Assembly: GCA_963716335.1 (NCBI GenBank)
Contig: OY970302.1
Span: 3,655,302 to 3,719,301, forward strand
Direction: 5' to 3'
Source of the DNA: an uncultured Pseudomonadota bacterium
Lineage (GTDB): Bacteria; Pseudomonadota; Gammaproteobacteria; Steroidobacterales; Steroidobacteraceae
DNA: 64,000 nt
Shown here: positions 2 through 21,614 of the stretch, in pieces
Layout of the letters: every line of letters begins with the position of its first letter
Position numbering within the stretch: the first letter of the stretch is position 1
Notes under the pieces: generated by a model
Told to the model about the DNA's origin: nothing
The model's database searches: none
Seen by the model: only the letters and a program-made list of their open reading frames with translations
Position numbers and translations under genes: made by a program

Positions 2-475
2 GATGCGCAGCAGCAGACACGCTCCTGGGAGAGCCTCAAGGCCGAGGAGCGCGCGGCGCTCGCCCGGACGCAAGATGCGCCGGACCACAGCGCGCTGGCG
101 CATGTTCCACAGGCACTGCCTGCCCTGGCGCGGGCGGCCAAGCTCGGTCGCCGCGCGGCGCGGGTCGGTTTCGACTGGCAGCAGCCGGCGCAAGTGCGCG
201 CCAAAGTGCTCGAAGAGCTCCACGAAGTGGACGCGGCGCTGACGCAGGGCGATGCAACGCACGTCGCGGAAGAAGTGGGCGACCTGTTGTTCGCGGTAGC
301 CAACTGGACGTTGCACCTGCAGATCGACCCGGAGGAGGCGCTGCGTGCCGCCAACCGCAAGTTCGAGCGCCGTTTTCGCCACATGGAGAGATTGGCGGGC
401 GCGCAGGGGCGGCCGCTGGAATCGCTCTCGGCGGCCGAGTGGGACGAATTGTGGAGTCGGGCCAAGAGTGGCTGA
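2..475 (+). CDS. mazG: Nucleoside triphosphate pyrophosphohydrolase MazG, C-terminal part (5' end lies outside the window)
   Basis: Frame 2 is open from the window edge. Translation ...RAARVGFDWQQPAQVRAKVLEELHEVDAAL...AEEVGDLLFAVANW...ANRKFERRFRHME matches the MazG repeat signature (EExxD plus KFxRRF). Confidence 0.85.
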   Translation, partial: DAQQQTRSWESLKAEERAALARTQDAPDHSALAHVPQALPALARAAKLGRRAARVGFDWQQPAQVRAKVLEELHEVDAALTQGDATHVAEEVGDLLFAVANWTLHLQIDPEEALRAANRKFERRFRHMERLAGAQGRPLESLSAAEWDELWSRAKSG

Positions 476-5781: not shown

Positions 5782-7155
5782 ATGCGAGCTCACGAGACCA
5801 CCTCCTGGCACAGCGCCAGCTGGCAGACCCGGCCGGCACAACAGCAGCCCACCTATGCGGATCCGCAGGCCCTCGAGCGCGCTGTGGCCCACCTGTCGCG
5901 CCTGCCGCCCATCGTCGTTTCCTGGGAGATCGATGCTTTGCGTGAGCGTCTGGCCGCCGCCCAGCGCGGCCAGGCCTTTCTGCTGCAGGGCGGGGATTGC
6001 GCCGAGACCTTTGCCGATTGCGCCTCCGACCAGATCGCCAAGAAGCTGAAGATCCTGCTGCAGATGAGCATCGTGCTGCTCCATGGCCTGAAGCGACCGA
6101 TCATCCGTGTCGGACGCATGGCAGGGCAGTATGCTAAGCCGCGCTCTGCCGATACCGAGACCCATGACGGTGTCACGTTGCCGGCGTATCGCGGCGATCT
6201 CGTCAACCGGCCGCAGTTCACCGCCGAAGCCCGGGCGGCGGATCCCGAGCTGCTGCTGCGTGGTTACGAGCGGGCGGCGCTGACGTTGAATTTCGTGCGC
6301 GCGCTGGTGGATGGCGGCTTTGCCGATCTGCACCACCCGGAATACTGGGATCTCGGCTTCGTCAAGCACGCACCGCTGAAGGACGCCTACCAGCGCATCG
6401 TGAGCGCCATCGGGGATGCGCTGGATTTCTTCGAAGGCATCACCGGGCAGTCCGTGCACGAGGCGCGGCTCGTCAATTTCTACTCGAGCCACGAGGGGCT
6501 GCACCTGCTGTACGAGCAGGCACAGACACGCTTCATTCCGCGGCAGAACCGCTGGTACAATCTGTCCACGCATTTCCCCTGGATCGGCATGCGCACGGCG
6601 AGCCTGGATGGGGCGCACGTGGAATATTTCCGTGGCATCTCCAACCCCGTGGCCGTGAAGGTTGGCTCGGCGATGGATGCCAGCTGGCTGCAGGGCCTCG
6701 TCACCACGCTAAATCCGCAGAACCAGCCGGGACGACTGACCCTGATCCATCGTTTCGGCGCCAAGGACGTCGAGGCCGCGTTGCCGCGCGCGATCGAGGC
6801 TGTGCGCCAGACCGGCCACAGCGTGCTGTGGATCTGCGATCCCATGCACGGCAACACCGAGACGAGCACTGGCGGACTCAAGACCCGTCGTTTCGAGAAC
6901 ATCCAGAAGGAGCTCGAGCTGGCCTTTCGCATTCATGCGGAAATGGGCTCCTCCCTCGGCGGCGTACACGTGGAGCTGACGGGCGATGATGTCACCGAAT
7001 GCACCGGAGGGGCCCGCGGCCTGACCGATGCGGACCTGCAGCGGGCGTATCGATCCAGTGTCGATCCGCGTTTGAATCACGAGCAGGCCCTCGAGCTTGC
7101 GATGCTGATCGCCGAGCACAGCCAGAGTCGCCGGGCCGCCCGCGCGGCGGGTTGA
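5782..7155 (+). CDS. Class II 3-deoxy-7-phosphoheptulonate (DAHP) synthase
   Basis: WHSASWQTRPAQQQPTYADPQALE...FLLQGGDCAETF...RMAGQYAKPRS...WICDPMHGNT... is the characteristic class II (plant/actinobacterial-type) DAHP synthase pattern. Length 457 aa. Confidence 0.92.
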   Translation: MRAHETTSWHSASWQTRPAQQQPTYADPQALERAVAHLSRLPPIVVSWEIDALRERLAAAQRGQAFLLQGGDCAETFADCASDQIAKKLKILLQMSIVLLHGLKRPIIRVGRMAGQYAKPRSADTETHDGVTLPAYRGDLVNRPQFTAEARAADPELLLRGYERAALTLNFVRALVDGGFADLHHPEYWDLGFVKHAPLKDAYQRIVSAIGDALDFFEGITGQSVHEARLVNFYSSHEGLHLLYEQAQTRFIPRQNRWYNLSTHFPWIGMRTASLDGAHVEYFRGISNPVAVKVGSAMDASWLQGLVTTLNPQNQPGRLTLIHRFGAKDVEAALPRAIEAVRQTGHSVLWICDPMHGNTETSTGGLKTRRFENIQKELELAFRIHAEMGSSLGGVHVELTGDDVTECTGGARGLTDADLQRAYRSSVDPRLNHEQALELAMLIAEHSQSRRAARAAG

Positions 7156-7183
7156 TTCCACGAAGCGTCGATCTCGAGCGGCA

Positions 7184-7897
7184 GTGGGCGCAACGGGCGC
7201 AAAATCCGCCTCCGGCACGGAGGCATCGTCGTGCGCGCGTCCGCCCAAGCCCGGGCGCACGCGCTGCTATGATCCGGACTGCACGCAATGCCCGCGGCTT
7301 GCCGAATTCCTGGCGGAAACCCATCAGCACTTTCCGGGCTACTTCGCACGCCCCGTGCCTTCCTTCGGGGATGCGGCGCCGCGCATTCTGATCGTCGGAC
7401 TCGCGCCGGGGATGCACGGCGCGAACCGCACGGGCCGGCCCTTTACCGGCGATCATGCGGGGATCCTGCTCTACGAGACGCTGCATGCGCTCGGACTGGC
7501 CAGCCGGCCGCAGTCGGTGAGCGCTGCGGATGGCCTCACGTTGCGCCACGTGCGAATCTGCAATGCGGTCAAATGCGTTCCGCCGCAGAACAAGCCCCTG
7601 CCCGAGGAGATCCGCCGCTGCAACGCTTACCTGCAGACGGAGCTGCAGGAGCTCGCCAGCGTGCGCGTCATTCTCGCCCTGGGCCGCATCGCCCATGAGG
7701 GCGTGCTGCTGGCATCGGGCCTGAAGCGCAGCGAGTTTGCCTTCGGGCACGGGCGCGAGCACCGCTTGGACGGGCAACGATGGCTCCTCGACTCGTATCA
7801 TTGCAGCCGCTACAACACCCAGACGCGCGTGCTGACGGGGGAGATGTTCAGGGCGGTGGTGGCGCGAGCTTGCGTGCGCGCGGGTTTGGCGGCTTGA
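7184..7897 (+). CDS. Uracil-DNA glycosylase superfamily protein (family 4/5, Fe-S type)
   Basis: CYDPDCTQCPRL cysteine cluster, ILIVGLAPGMHGANRTGRPFTGDHAG motif (GLAPxxHGxNRTGRxFTGD, family-5-like), and a late HCSRYN motif. GTG is the only in-frame start after the DAHP synthase stop. Confidence 0.75.
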   Translation: MGATGAKSASGTEASSCARPPKPGRTRCYDPDCTQCPRLAEFLAETHQHFPGYFARPVPSFGDAAPRILIVGLAPGMHGANRTGRPFTGDHAGILLYETLHALGLASRPQSVSAADGLTLRHVRICNAVKCVPPQNKPLPEEIRRCNAYLQTELQELASVRVILALGRIAHEGVLLASGLKRSEFAFGHGREHRLDGQRWLLDSYHCSRYNTQTRVLTGEMFRAVVARACVRAGLAA

Positions 7898-10511: not shown

Positions 10512-10585
<74 letters not shown>

Positions 10586-10642
10586 AAGGTTCTCGACCGG
10601 AAGCCCCGTCGGACACGCCCGCCGGGGCTTCTTGGTTTGTAC

Positions 10643-10713
10643 GGCTAGGTGGCAGAGTGGTCATGCAGCGGCCTGCAAAGCCGCGTACAGCGGTTCGATT
10701 CCGCTCCTAGCCT
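10643..10713 (+). tRNA. cysT: tRNA-Cys (anticodon GCA)
   Basis: Acceptor GGCTAGG/CCTAGCC, anticodon arm GCGGC-CTGCAAA-GCCGC, T arm AGCGG-TTCGATT-CCGCT, discriminator T. CCA is not encoded. Confidence 0.93.
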
Positions 10714-10755
10714 CGCCTTCGATGCAACGCCTTTGATGCAATGCCGTGCGGGAAC

Positions 10756-19866: not shown

Positions 19867-20074
19867 CGGTTCCTCGTTGAATGGGTCAAGATGAGGGGCG
19901 ACACGCGGCCAGTATCGAGTGCGGAAGTTAACCGCGAGCTGAACGTCGGGCTGCCGGCATTATGACAACGATGCTTTCCGCCTCAGAGAATTTGCCTGCA
20001 CGGACCATATCGACGATGGCGTTGGATGCGGCGGTGAGTCCGTCGGATTCATCGTCGACGCAGTTCCGTGGCCC

Positions 20075-20374
20075 TTACTGGGGCCCCTTCGATGGCGTCT
20101 TCCAGGAGCTCTCCACGAGGTGAACGTTGTGTAGGAGGGCCCGCTTGCTTGGTTTGCTTTCCTGGGGATCTCTCGTTTTCCGATCGCTGAACAGGCGATC
20201 GAGGTCGGCGTCGATCGCGATGAGATTCTCCCGCGCCGTCTGACAGGTAGTCCCCGCTTGCAGGGCCCGAACAAGTGCACGCGCCTTCTGCAAAGCGGCG
20301 GGGTCCTCGCCCGGCCCTAAGACAATCATCCGGCGCAGCTGACCACACAGTCGTACAGCGGCCTCCCGGTCCAT
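20075..20374 (-). CDS. Hypothetical protein (weak call)
   Basis: ORF MDREAAVRLCGQLRRMIVLGPGEDPAALQKARALVRALQAG... lies immediately downstream of the tRNA-Leu 3' end. Codon bias is only moderate, the composition is atypical, and there is no motif. Confidence 0.3.
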   Translation of the reverse strand: MDREAAVRLCGQLRRMIVLGPGEDPAALQKARALVRALQAGTTCQTARENLIAIDADLDRLFSDRKTRDPQESKPSKRALLHNVHLVESSWKTPSKGPQ

Positions 20375-20472
20375 TCCCGCTCCCCGTGAAAAGCCCGATG
20401 CACGATCCAAATGCTGCCAGGAACGCTGAGTTCCCATGAGGGCGCGCCGAGGAGCGCGGCGAGGGAAATAAA

Positions 20473-20806
20473 TGGTGCCCGGGGCCGGAGTCGAACCGGC
20501 ATGGGGTTGCCCCCGAGGGATTTTCGTACCCGCTACAGCTTTCGCTGCTGCACGCGGCAGCGTGCATTTGGGGTCTGGACTTTACCTTTGCCGTGTCACG
20601 GCTGCGCTCGAGCCGCGAGGTAGGCAGGGGCCGTCAAGTCTCTACACTTTCCCGCAGCCCGCAGGCGCTGTCGGGCTTAGCTCGGTATTGCAGCCACCCT
20701 GACGTGCTGCTGGTTCACCGACTTTGACCCCATTCACACCGGCCGTTTCCGCCCCGGGTGCTCAATTGTTCAAGTCCCTTGCGTCTACCGATTTCGCCAC
20801 CCGGGC
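20473..20806 (-). tRNA. leuZ: tRNA-Leu (anticodon UAA), split gene: 5' exon 20806-20772, 3' exon 20524-20473, interrupted by a group I intron
   Basis: The joined exons GCCCGGGUGGCGAAAUCGGUAGACGCAAGGGACUU + AAAAUCCCUCGGGGGCAACCCCAUGCCGGUUCGACUCCGGCCCCGGGCACCA give an 87-nt class II tRNA. It has acceptor GCCCGGG/CCCGGGC, D stem GCG/CGC, anticodon stem AGGGA/UCCCU, loop CUUAAAA, variable arm GGGG-GCAA-CCCC, T arm GCCGG-UUCGACU-CCGGC, discriminator A and an encoded CCA. Confidence 0.9.
20525..20771 (-). ncRNA. Group I intron (IC3-like, ORF-less, 247 nt) inserted between U34 and A35 of tRNA-Leu(UAA)
   Basis: P1 can form as exon CUU + intron GA paired with UUGAG, with a U.G wobble at the 5' splice site. 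The intron ends in G directly before the 3' exon. Core strings GUGUAGAGACUUGACGG, GGUAAAGUCCAGA and CAGCAGCGAAAGCUGUAGCGGGUACG closely resemble (from memory) the P7/J8-7/P9 core of the Anabaena/plastid trnL(UAA) intron. Confidence 0.85.
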
Positions 20807-20996
20807 ATCGGGTGCGCAGTGATTCTACTAAAAGGGCGCCGCCGCAGAACGCCCTTCCAGCCGAGCCCGCGTACTCGGTCAAGCCGGGCTCCCGCGCAGG
20901 ACATCCGGACCGCGTTCACGTCCCGAAGCGTGAGTGGTAGCGCTAAGCCACTGAATTTGCGAGACTCGCGCGCCTCCATTGCCATCGTCGGGTCCC

Positions 20997-21614
20997 ATGA
21001 CCGAGCGTTCCCTGCAAGCCGAAAACCTGCATTTGTGGCGCGGGGATCGGCACGTTCTGCGCGGCCTCGAGTTTTCGGTGCATCCGGGGGAGTGTCTGCA
21101 GGTGACCGGGGCCAATGGCTCGGGCAAGACGAGCTTGCTGCGGACACTGAGCGGACTGATGTACCCGGAAGAGGGCGCCGTGTGCTGGGGGGGGGTCGAC
21201 ATCCGCAAGGATCTGGTGACCTTCTGCCTCGATCTTGCCTATATCGGCCATGAACCCCCACTGAAAGTGGATCTTTCGGCGCGCGAGAACCTGCATTACT
21301 GGGTAGGTCTGCGGCGGGCGCTCTCGAGGCACGAGATCGACTCGGGCCTCGATCGCGTCGGGGCACAACAATGGGGCGCACGACCCGTGCGCACGCTGTC
21401 TGCCGGACAGAAGCGACGGGTGGCCTTGGCCGGGCTGGCTCTCATGGGCGCGCCCCTCTGGCTTCTGGATGAGCCCAACACCAACCTCGACTCGGAGGGA
21501 CAGCATCTCATGACCTCACTCATCTGCGAACACGTTGCAGGCGGCGGAGTGGTCGTCGCGGCGGTTCATCAGCCGTTGGCGCTGAGCGCCAGATCGCTGG
21601 ACCTGGGCGTCTGA
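20997..21614 (+). CDS. ccmA: Heme exporter ATP-binding protein CcmA
   Basis: Walker A GANGSGKTSLLR, signature LSAGQKRRVAL, Walker B LWLLDEP. First gene of the ccm operon. Confidence 0.93.
   Translation: MTERSLQAENLHLWRGDRHVLRGLEFSVHPGECLQVTGANGSGKTSLLRTLSGLMYPEEGAVCWGGVDIRKDLVTFCLDLAYIGHEPPLKVDLSARENLHYWVGLRRALSRHEIDSGLDRVGAQQWGARPVRTLSAGQKRRVALAGLALMGAPLWLLDEPNTNLDSEGQHLMTSLICEHVAGGGVVVAAVHQPLALSARSLDLGV

Follow-up and report, generated by a model that had tools for sequence, protein, structure and literature searches.

In an uncultured Steroidobacteraceae bacterium the gene for tRNA-Leu(UAA) is interrupted within its anticodon by a group I intron, and we consider it very probable that the locus is a functional tRNA gene with a resident, ORF-less intron of the bacterial tRNA type IC3, class Leu.3Ug. 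Exons, boundaries, a fold backed by covariation, family membership, conservation among homologues and distribution (at least 59 homologous introns) all agree on this assignment. The intron is real, but the class to which it belongs is already known. Its catalytic activity and splicing in vivo are inferred. In the following, the window denotes the whole 64-kb stretch of DNA that was analyzed.

The split tRNA-Leu(UAA) gene

How is the gene organized? ARAGORN in intron mode calls a tRNA-Leu(UAA) on the minus strand as Leu(taa) i(36,247), that is with an insert of 247 nt at gene position 35/36 that splits the anticodon between U34 and A35. The 5' exon (20772..20806, minus strand, 35 nt) has CUU at its 3' end, the final nucleotide of which, U-1 at 20772, is U34 of the anticodon. 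The 3' exon (20473..20524, minus strand, 52 nt) begins with AAAAUCCCU and provides the variable arm, the T arm, the discriminator A and the encoded CCA. The spliced class II tRNA of 87 nt has an acceptor stem of 7 bp, an anticodon stem of 5 bp with CUUAAAA as its loop, a long variable arm, A as discriminator and CCA. The intron therefore follows the third nucleotide of the anticodon loop of a tRNA-Leu(UAA) (CUU/.../AAAA), which is the site of the class Leu.3Ug. The exon-intron junction is confirmed by the syntenic relative L122, whose tRNA-Leu(UAA) gene is uninterrupted and reads ACUU.AAAAUCC across the predicted junction. The original prediction, made by reading the sequence, had placed the boundaries, the 87-nt class II tRNA-Leu and the U34/A35 site exactly where the intron-aware ARAGORN search that it had proposed now puts them, together with the 247-nt intron.

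Neither ARAGORN with default settings nor the Rfam tRNA model calls the split gene in the window, and the ORFs that overlap the locus (20049-20567 and 20785-21381) have no Pfam match, which fits the expectation that gene callers would mis-annotate it. A simple scan found no consensus sigma-70 promoter and no intrinsic terminator around the gene. By eye, a weak TTCTGC-16-TAGAAT can be read upstream of the tRNA, below the threshold of the scan. UUA makes up 3 of the 252 leucine codons in the genes of the 64-kb window; this codon use we count in favor of a need for tRNA-Leu(UAA), and the host presumably depends on splicing for UUA decoding.

Identification of the intron

The intron (20525..20771, minus strand, 247 nt) is free of ORFs, ends with omega-G at 20525 and was identified by profile search, covariance model and covariation. 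An nhmmer profile made with 14 bacterial tRNA group I introns from the literature matched once in the 64-kb window (108.2 bits, E = 5.4e-33, model positions 5-226 of 227). A covariance model (CM R1), built from only 12 published bacterial tRNA introns, also had a sole match in the window, which scores 147.4 bits with E about 9e-48, takes in the full model (positions 1-230 of 230), covers 20774-20525 and runs from the exon CUU to omega-G. These single end-to-end matches show that the intron at the locus is not a chance match.

Rfam RF00028 (Intron_gpI) gave no match in the whole window at its gathering threshold (50 bits) and none on 20350-20950 even at E <= 10. In a positive control with eight loci containing verified homologues, the same model missed six and scored the other two below threshold (39.2 and 30.7 bits). 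The absence of an RF00028 match thus reflects the model's limits and is no argument against membership in the family, and the reading that no RF00028 match means no intron was rejected. None of the Rfam seeds was bacterial (Williams, 2020, bioRxiv 10.1101/2020.01.27.920355). The original prediction had regarded a missing RF00028 match as refuting; the match is indeed missing, but with six of eight verified homologues missed as well this yardstick is invalid.

Secondary structure of the intron

A single-sequence minimum free energy fold (z = -1.8) did not recover the pseudoknotted core; as such folds are uninformative for group I introns, comparative analysis was used instead. P1 to P9 were drawn by hand and scored over 46 homologues in a MAFFT alignment. 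Overall, the structure is 89.2% paired as compared to 31-44% in controls with slid partners, and both sides have changed at 26 pairs. All elements lie on the minus strand.

P1 (20761..20774) is formed by CUUGA (20774-20770; exon CUU and intron GA) and UUGAG (20765-20761) with the loop ACAA and places a U-1.G wobble at the 5' splice site. It is paired in 100% of the 46 sequences, the splice-site pair being U.G in 43 and C-G in 3. The P2 hairpin (20737..20760) carries a GAAA tetraloop (L2) that is kept across most of the intron family; in the MAFFT alignment 78% of its stem is paired, and 6 pairs have changed on both sides. The 5' strand of P3 (GGGGUC, 20726..20731) pairs with its 3' strand (GGCCCC, 20627..20632), forming together with P7 the P3-P7 pseudoknot. 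P3 is 100% paired in the 46 homologues, with both-side changes at 3 pairs (CG, GC, AU, UA, GU). The P4-P5 domain (20682..20721), adjoined by the conserved J3/4 (AAA) and J4/5, consists of P4 (UCGGUG/UACCGA, 20721-20716 with 20687-20682; 98.6% paired in the 46 homologues) and the P5 hairpin (20712-20691). P6 (GCU/AGU) and its extension P6a (CCCG.../...CGGG) occupy 20646..20681 and are paired in 98.6 and 93.5%, respectively, with compensatory changes in both.

The 5' strand of P7, G(A)GACUU with a bulged A (20636..20642), pairs with AAGUCC (20577..20582), just before which lies the conserved J8/7 (AAGGUA). P7 is 99.6% paired, and three of its pairs switch both sides between clades (ACUU/AAGU, AGCA/UGCU, ACUA/UAGU) while G(A)GAC.../...GUCC is invariant, as are the outer three pairs in the 46 sequences. 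By analogy with the Azoarcus intron, P7 is the putative guanosine-binding site. P8 (UGCC/GGCA) and a variable distal hairpin lie at 20589..20626, P8 being 99.5% paired in the 46 homologues with both-side changes at 3 pairs. The P9 domain (20528..20574) comprises P9 (ACCC/GGGU), the P9a hairpin and P9b (GCAGC-GAAA-GCUGU, 20548-20535), after which ACG leads to omega-G. P9b is 86% paired over the 46 homologues and its GAAA tetraloop is invariant (L9 is GCGAAAGC); the low pairing of P9 (46%) stems from a one-column register shift of MAFFT at the 3' end and not from structural failure. Both L2 and L9 are thus GAAA tetraloops, and their docking into helical receptors as clamps of the Azoarcus type is predicted. 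The intron ends ...GGUACG/AAAAUCC with G as last base (omega-G), the conservation of which in the retrieved set is partly due to construction, since the scan pattern required a G before AAAAUCCC.

At each of the 68 columns in which the other 45 sequences show no variation, the window copy has the common base. Among columns conserved to at least 90% it departs at only two, and these belong to a single P5 pair that has changed from C-G to A-U on both sides. Judging from this comparison the core appears undecayed, which we count in favor of a functional intron. The structural claims of the original prediction held up well. P1 is present with CUUGA/UUGAG, a 4-nt loop and U.G at the splice site; the last intron base is G; the motifs cited for the core are found at the locus; and the core helices P3, P4, P6, P7 and P8 could be drawn and are 98.6-100% paired in the 46 homologues. 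Its overall description, a group I intron free of ORFs in tRNA-Leu(UAA), with a U.G pair at the 5' splice site and an omega-G, is supported in every part, as is the remark that the intron is GC-rich like its host (63.2% for the intron, 64.5% for the window).

Proposed splicing mechanism

How would the intron be removed? By analogy with the established group I pathway, the pre-tRNA would be transcribed with the intron inside. The intron RNA would adopt a P1-P9 core that includes the P3-P7 pseudoknot, and the GAAA tetraloops of L2 and L9 probably clamp this fold as they do in Azoarcus. The phosphate 3' of U-1, which is held in the U.G wobble of P1, would then be attacked by an exogenous guanosine that occupies P7. 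Subsequently, omega-G would take the place of the guanosine in P7, and the 3'-OH of U-1 would attack the 3' splice site, so that ligation of CUU to AAAA restores the anticodon loop CUUAAAA. As no P10 is evident, the exons are probably aligned by the anticodon stem of the tRNA, as for the Anabaena pre-tRNA-Leu.

Inheritance of the intron and alternative explanations

The window intron groups in a clade (clade A) with introns of Steroidobacter flavus, Peristeroidobacter soli and MAGs of Steroidobacteraceae, Rariloculaceae and Azotimanducaceae. Within clade A, identity is 75-84% for introns and 91-99% for exons; over conserved columns the Steroidobacterales copies are 80-84% identical to the window intron. 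Seven related loci, from Steroidobacter, Peristeroidobacter and allied MAGs, retain the divergent arrangement of tRNA-Leu and ccmA-F. Since clade A follows the taxonomy of its hosts and remains syntenic with the ccm operon, the comparison suggests that the lineage of the window intron was mostly inherited vertically, consistent with the resident, vertically kept ribozyme of the original prediction, to which the host-like GC content also conforms. In other Gammaproteobacteria the split gene lies at the canonical position of the Gly-Cys-Leu tRNA cluster, which argues for the main copy and not a spare. A metagenome sample anchored on CcmB was aimed at the frequency of intron absence in close relatives, for which the sampled relatives, at most 60% identical, were too distant: 79 of the 80 loci lacked the tRNA-Leu/ccm synteny, and the only informative one was L122, syntenic, more distant and with an uninterrupted gene.

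Alternatively, the intron could have arrived recently by homing or by recombination at the tRNA locus and would then not be vertical in the Steroidobacterales. The wider family is mobile in places, as two relatives (L028 and L086) contain an antisense HNH endonuclease ORF inside introns of about 695 nt. In a second clade (clade B), introns from Beta- and Gammaproteobacteria stand side by side at 90-95% identity, and a clade B intron also occurs in one MAG of the Steroidobacteraceae (L115). Such an arrival would also agree with the intron-free gene of L122. The window intron, however, has the GC content of its host and contains no homing endonuclease ORF, its 247 nt falling among the lengths of the copies that lack an ORF; blastn against plasmid and phage collections gave no match to it; and the deep divergence of clade A along host taxonomy, with exons far more similar than introns, together with the conserved ccmA-F synteny makes recent arrival very unlikely. 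At the opposite extreme, clade A could be an old vertical lineage spanning several gammaproteobacterial orders and share with the cyanobacterial and plastid intron a single insertion before the phyla split, rather than go back to later site-specific transfers. We regard this as a speculative and unlikely scenario; if true, UUA decoding in clade A hosts would have been ribozyme-dependent for a very long time.

A further alternative is a decaying relic, in which splicing of the intron has ceased, the interrupted gene has become a pseudogene and UUA and UUG are decoded by another copy of tRNA-Leu(UAA). The window represents 64 kb of the genome, so that a second copy may be located elsewhere, no consensus promoter was found and Rfam does not recognize the intron. 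A relic is nevertheless highly improbable, as none of the 68 invariant columns is violated, the two departures from highly conserved columns form one compensatory pair, all core helices pair, the exons give a perfect tRNA with encoded CCA, the split gene is retained at the syntenic site in seven relatives and it takes the canonical Gly-Cys-Leu position in other Gammaproteobacteria. Some group I introns in other systems require protein cofactors, and the window intron could likewise adopt the group I fold and yet splice efficiently in vivo only with the help of a host protein, as chaperone or cofactor. This need seems very unlikely to us: the core is complete, the high GC content should favor a stable fold, and the GAAA tetraloops of L2 and L9, typical of the robustly self-splicing IC3 introns of Azoarcus and Anabaena, would be expected to stabilize it. 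A functional gene with a resident intron thus remains the preferred reading.

Distribution and significance

At least 59 homologous introns were found in species-representative genomes, about 50 of which ARAGORN calls in tRNA-Leu(UAA) at the same site. Their hosts are Gamma-, Beta- and Alphaproteobacteria, including Xanthomonadales/Lysobacterales, Steroidobacterales, Salinisphaera, Pseudomonas, Burkholderiales and Bradyrhizobium. At three Bradyrhizobium loci, ARAGORN calls of Phe and Ser were rejected, as the exons are tRNA-Leu(UAA) on inspection; the boundary was mis-set because the intron begins with AA. Vepritskiy, Vitol and Nierzwicki-Bauer reportedly described an intron of group I in the tRNA-Leu(UAA) gene of a deep-subsurface gamma-proteobacterium in J Bacteriol in 2002, which would be a direct precedent for the gammaproteobacterial host range. 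Leu.3Ug is one of four classical bacterial classes, a related type, Leu.3Cg, occurs only in Proteobacteria, and thousands of such introns had already been mapped in the 2020 survey (Williams, 2020, bioRxiv 10.1101/2020.01.27.920355). As the same intron type is common at this site in Proteobacteria and is catalogued, the window intron belongs to a known class and is ordinary within it. The rarity in Proteobacteria that the original prediction had assumed is contradicted by these numbers, and its view of the trnL(UAA) intron as a cyanobacterial and plastid lineage marker does not survive the range of proteobacterial hosts. Its guess of "Xanthomonadales-like" relatives came close, but the host is a Steroidobacteraceae bacterium.

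There is accordingly nothing new in kind here, given the survey of 2020. The distribution nevertheless corrects the textbook view of the trnL(UAA) intron as a cyanobacterial and plastid feature, which a review of 2014 (PMC4033280) still stated. Mainly, the finding is of practical use, for the annotation of split tRNA-Leu(UAA) genes. Since standard tRNA finders and RF00028 miss the gene, genomes of Steroidobacterales and of many Xanthomonadales/Lysobacterales and Burkholderiales appear to be without tRNA-Leu(UAA), and false ORFs may be annotated across the locus in these genomes. Furthermore, clade A, ORF-less and congruent with taxonomy, and clade B, promiscuous and sometimes with an HNH ORF, offer a contrast that could serve to study persistence against mobility of an intron.

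Comparison with known systems

Within clade A the introns share gene, site, architecture and the variants of P7, P3 and P6, and the Steroidobacterales loci also share the divergent ccmA-F. They differ from the window intron in the peripheral loops of P5, P6a, P8 and P9a, which vary in length and sequence. To our knowledge, the clade A copies (Steroidobacter flavus, Peristeroidobacter soli and the MAGs) have not been described individually.

Classical examples of Leu.3Ug are the trnL introns of Anabaena/Nostoc and of plastids (Xu et al., 1990, as cited in PMC3984707). They resemble the window intron in the tRNA-Leu(UAA) gene, insertion between U34 and A35, the U-1.G wobble and omega-G, in the IC3-type core with its J3/4, J6/7-P7-P3' and J8/7 segments and the P9 GCGAAAGC hairpin, and in a length of about 220-250 nt with no ORF. 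In contrast to the cyanobacterial introns, the window intron resides in a gammaproteobacterium, is GC-rich (63%) and pairs ACUU/AAGU in the inner part of P7 in place of ACUA/UAGU. The cyanobacterial representative Sel1 is 55% identical to it over conserved columns and separate in a rough neighbor-joining tree. The closeness to the Anabaena intron core that the original prediction had seen does not amount to a special affinity, as identity with the Steroidobacterales copies is 80-84%.

The Azoarcus tRNA-Ile(CAU) intron (PMC13168695), an IC3 intron of solved structure, is listed as 'Aol6.Ile2.5Ug' in the Williams seed alignment. It has in common with the window intron the compact IC3 core, the P3-P7 pseudoknot, the bulged A of P7, the GAAA tetraloops of L2 and L9 and the joining segments. 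Identity to the window intron is 77% in the pairwise-aligned columns and 52% in those conserved across the multi-sequence alignment. It differs in residing in another tRNA, in its insertion after position 5 of the loop instead of 3 and in a shorter P9. Finally, the Leu.3Cg introns (Bordetella tumbae L005, L076 and L102), which fall inside clade B, have the same tRNA-Leu anticodon-loop position and a homologous core. In these introns C-1 replaces U-1, so that the splice-site pair of P1 is a Watson-Crick C-G and the mature tRNA would have the anticodon CAA, whereas the window intron has the canonical U-1.

The split tRNA gene and its intron-less allele

The original prediction that two exons join to a perfect class II tRNA-Leu(UAA) around a 247-nt insert was borne out by ARAGORN in intron mode, which called an 87-nt tRNA-Leu(taa) whose 247-nt intron lies at gene position 35/36, with the same boundaries (exon 1, 20806-20772; intron, 20771-20525; exon 2, 20524-20473, all on the minus strand), and direct reading of the minus strand of 20300-21000 recovered all sequences quoted for the locus. 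The joined exons yield a clean class II tRNA-Leu with a 7-bp acceptor stem, a long variable arm, a 5-bp anticodon stem (AGGGA/UCCCU), the loop CUUAAAA, discriminator A and an encoded CCA. As predicted, the GC content of the intron is like that of the host (63.2% vs 64.5% for the window). Default ARAGORN and the Rfam tRNA model left the gene undetected and listed no tRNA genes except those for Gly and Cys at 10.5 kb, and a Pfam search of the ORFs overlapping the split locus gave no match.

The predicted insertion between U34 and A35 is confirmed by an intron-less allele of the syntenic locus. The closest relative in a CcmB-anchored metagenome sample, which is unbiased as to the intron, is L122 (Ga0268386_10005025, 65% GC; CcmB 60% identical). 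It carries an uninterrupted tRNA-Leu(UAA) (294-378, minus strand) at the same divergent position beside ccmA (1501-2028), with the junction sequence GGGGACUU.AAAAUCCCC. Presence of the intron varies among more distant relatives.

Identification as a group I intron

The proposed search with RF00028 (Intron_gpI) found no match in the window at the gathering threshold, nor at E <= 10 over a 601-base region. This miss reflects the poor sensitivity of the model for the clade of the window intron, since in a positive control on eight loci with verified homologues RF00028 detected two of the eight proteobacterial tRNA-Leu introns (39.2 and 30.7 bits, both below the gathering score of 50 bits) and missed the other six. 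The control loci, run with Rfam 15, were L033, L109, L111, L005, L013 and L075 versus L011 and L031. No bacterial sequence is among the Rfam seeds, according to a paper that also offers a curated set of aligned group I introns from bacterial tRNA and tmRNA genes (Williams 2020, bioRxiv 10.1101/2020.01.27.920355). A profile HMM from 14 published introns of this alignment matched the 64-kb window only once (at 20770-20526; 108.2 bits, E = 5.4e-33; model positions 5-226 of 227), and a covariance model, R1, made from 12 published introns with the window and its relatives excluded, gave one match in the window (20774-20525; 147.4 bits, E about 9e-48, model 1-230 of 230), which extends from CUU of the exon through the last G of the intron. 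Proteobacterial tRNA-Leu introns, and with them the tRNA-Leu(UAA) genes that they interrupt, will systematically escape standard annotation pipelines, and the main value of the window intron lies in annotation.

Structure and conservation

P1-P9 were drawn on the minus strand by homology with the published intron alignment. P1 (CUUGA/UUGAG) contains the U-1.G wobble, P2 is a hairpin with a GAAA loop, P3 pairs GGGGUC with GGCCCC and P4 UCGGUG with UACCGA, P5 is a hairpin, P6 (GCU/AGU) is accompanied by P6a, P7 (G(A)GACUU/AAGUCC) forms a pseudoknot with P3, P8 is UGCC/GGCA, and P9 comprises hairpin P9a and a further hairpin, the invariant GCGAAAGC, followed by ACG with omega-G last. In A1, a MAFFT alignment of 46 homologous introns, pairing of the drawn structure is 89.2% vs 31-44% with the 3' partners slid by 1-3 columns. 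Both-sided changes occur at 26 pairs, A1 consisting of two main clades and many of these changes being common by descent. P7 appears among the homologues as ACUU/AAGU, AGCA/UGCU or ACUA/UAGU, and a single P3 pair varies among five types. The predicted P1 with U.G wobble and omega-G is upheld by complete pairing of P1 across the 46 homologues and by the R1 match to the terminal G, and the predicted group I core by pairing of 98.6-100% in the P3-P7 pseudoknot and P4, P6 and P8 (P3 100%, P7 99.6%, P8 99.5%, P4 and P6 98.6%); P6a is paired to 93.5%, and the low value for P9, 46%, is due to a one-column MAFFT end-gap shift. The window intron agrees at all 68 columns invariant in the other 45 sequences and differs at 2 of the 38 columns conserved to at least 90%, which are the two sides of one P5 pair (C-G to A-U); nothing in it points to decay. 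Folded as a single sequence, the intron gives an unremarkable MFE structure that lacks the pseudoknot, as expected.

Predicted splicing

How would such an intron be removed? For the window intron, with its observed fold, splice-site features and conservation, we infer catalysis from the pathway that is well established for group I introns. Guanosine, bound in P7 as cofactor, would attack after U-1 of P1, omega-G would next take the same P7 site, and the freed 3'-OH of U-1 would attack the 3' splice site, restoring the anticodon loop. No P10 is apparent. For Anabaena pre-tRNA-Leu, alignment of the exons by the anticodon stem is attributed to Zaug et al. (1993) as cited in PMC3984707, and by analogy the same alignment is likely in the window pre-tRNA-Leu. 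In the window's genes UUA accounts for 3 and UUG for 30 of 252 Leu codons; if this is the sole tRNA-Leu(UAA) gene, UUA decoding would need splicing.

Genomic setting

The tRNA-Leu gene sits upstream of, and points away from, a complete operon for system I cytochrome c maturation, ccmABCDEFGH (20979 to about 27100, plus strand; ccmA, B, C, D, E and F, a thioredoxin-like gene, ccmH and a TPR CcmH/CycH gene), which starts 173 bp away on the opposite strand, with the divergent intergenic region in common. Intron and divergent arrangement recur in L031 (S. flavus), L092 (P. soli), L033, L067, L072, L081 and L086. The CcmB encoded in the window shares a 90%-identity cluster with a protein annotated as from a Steroidobacteraceae bacterium. 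The window tRNA-Gly(GCC) and tRNA-Cys(GCA) (10512-10714, plus strand) are 10 kb from tRNA-Leu on the other strand, and this separation, with tRNA-Leu beside ccm, suggests that a rearrangement took place in the Steroidobacterales lineage.

Elsewhere, among others in loci from Lysobacter, Pseudomonas and Thiotrichaceae (L109 2613-3405, L111 2413-3220, L019, L055, L028), tRNA-Gly and/or tRNA-Cys immediately precede the split tRNA-Leu(UAA), an order that resembles the Gly-Cys-Leu tRNA cluster of E. coli (glyW-cysT-leuZ). S. flavus L031 has, about 1.4 kb downstream of its split gene, a match to the int-alpA RNA (RF02996; 4502-4567, plus strand; 46.9 bits, above its gathering score in Rfam), which may mark an integrated element adjoining the tRNA gene.

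Distribution

Species-representative genomes were scanned with a pattern that reaches from the P9 hairpin across omega-G into the first bases of exon 2. Among the 120 matches listed, at least 59 loci hold real introns according to the published-seed profile, and ARAGORN calls at least about 50 as tRNA-Leu(taa) with an intron at the identical site. The hosts among the matches listed are Xanthomonadales/Lysobacterales (Pseudofulvimonas, Dokdonella, Rhodanobacter, Pseudoxanthomonas, Lysobacter concretionis, a Xanthomonas MAG), Steroidobacterales (Steroidobacter flavus, Peristeroidobacter soli, MAGs), further Gammaproteobacteria (Salinisphaera, Pseudomonas jinjuensis, Ectopseudomonas guguanensis, Thioploca), among Betaproteobacteria many Burkholderiales (Bordetella, Achromobacter, Cupriavidus, Variovorax, Hydrogenophaga, Xylophilus, Pararobbsia, Lautropia), as well as Bradyrhizobium, one Planctomycetia MAG and one Lewinellaceae MAG. 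ARAGORN called Bradyrhizobium L029, L051 and L094 as tRNA-Phe(aaa)/tRNA-Ser(aga), mis-setting the boundary because the intron begins with AA; the exons are clearly tRNA-Leu(UAA) (…GGGACUU, intron AA…G, AAAAUCCCU).

An intron of this kind was reportedly found in a gammaproteobacterium by Vepritskiy and colleagues (J Bacteriol 2002). The structural reading of the original prediction was accurate. Its claim of rarity in Proteobacteria was not, as at least 59 homologous introns occur in Gamma-, Beta- and Alphaproteobacteria and Leu.3Ug counts as one of four classical classes of bacterial tRNA intron (Williams 2020, bioRxiv 10.1101/2020.01.27.920355); the type is already known and widely distributed. 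The reading of the trnL(UAA) intron as a cyanobacterial/plastid marker is not supported; this framing is out of date and is explained by a 2014 review (PMC4033280) in which the intron is still called cyanobacterial/plastid.

The 72 Leu.3Cg introns come from Proteobacteria only, and a splicing test of this class was flagged as needed (Williams 2020, bioRxiv 10.1101/2020.01.27.920355). The type is found in L005 (3886-4133, Bordetella tumbae), L076 and L102, in which exon 1 ends in CUC, giving C-1, a mature anticodon CAA and a Watson-Crick C-G in P1 at the 5' splice site. Enlarged homologous introns of 289-404 nt (L019 1984-2387, L055 6505-6905, L072 about 1005-1466, L093, L067) have their extra sequence in peripheral loops and contain no ORF of 100 aa or more.

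History and relation to known introns

In a NJ tree the homologous introns form two clades. Clade A (window, Steroidobacterales, Rariloculaceae, Azotimanducaceae, Foliamicus and others) branches in step with host taxonomy and has deep divergences, its introns being 75-84% and its exons 91-99% identical to those of the window. In clade B (L109, L032, L089, L013, L075, L060, L115 and others), Beta- (Hydrogenophaga, Variovorax, Cupriavidus) and Gammaproteobacteria (Lysobacter, a Xanthomonas MAG, Salinisphaera) are intermixed at 90-95% identity in A1, and the Steroidobacteraceae MAG L115 has a clade B, not a clade A, intron; this pattern implies horizontal transfer, locus replacement or mis-binning.

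The homologous tRNA-Leu(UAA) introns of L028 (about 7050-7800, uncultured gammaproteobacterium) and L086 (about 6040-6790, Salinisphaera sp. PC39) measure about 695 nt. Each contains an ORF of 154-167 aa, antisense to the tRNA and with HNH endonuclease domains (PF13392, PF01844), which probably encodes a homing endonuclease.

The window intron had no match to plasmid and phage sequences. As an insert in tRNA-Leu(UAA) it is a genuine group I intron of the IC3 type, both intact and resident, and is without special affinity to a cyanobacterial trnL intron, with which it shares 55% identity over 206 conserved columns.
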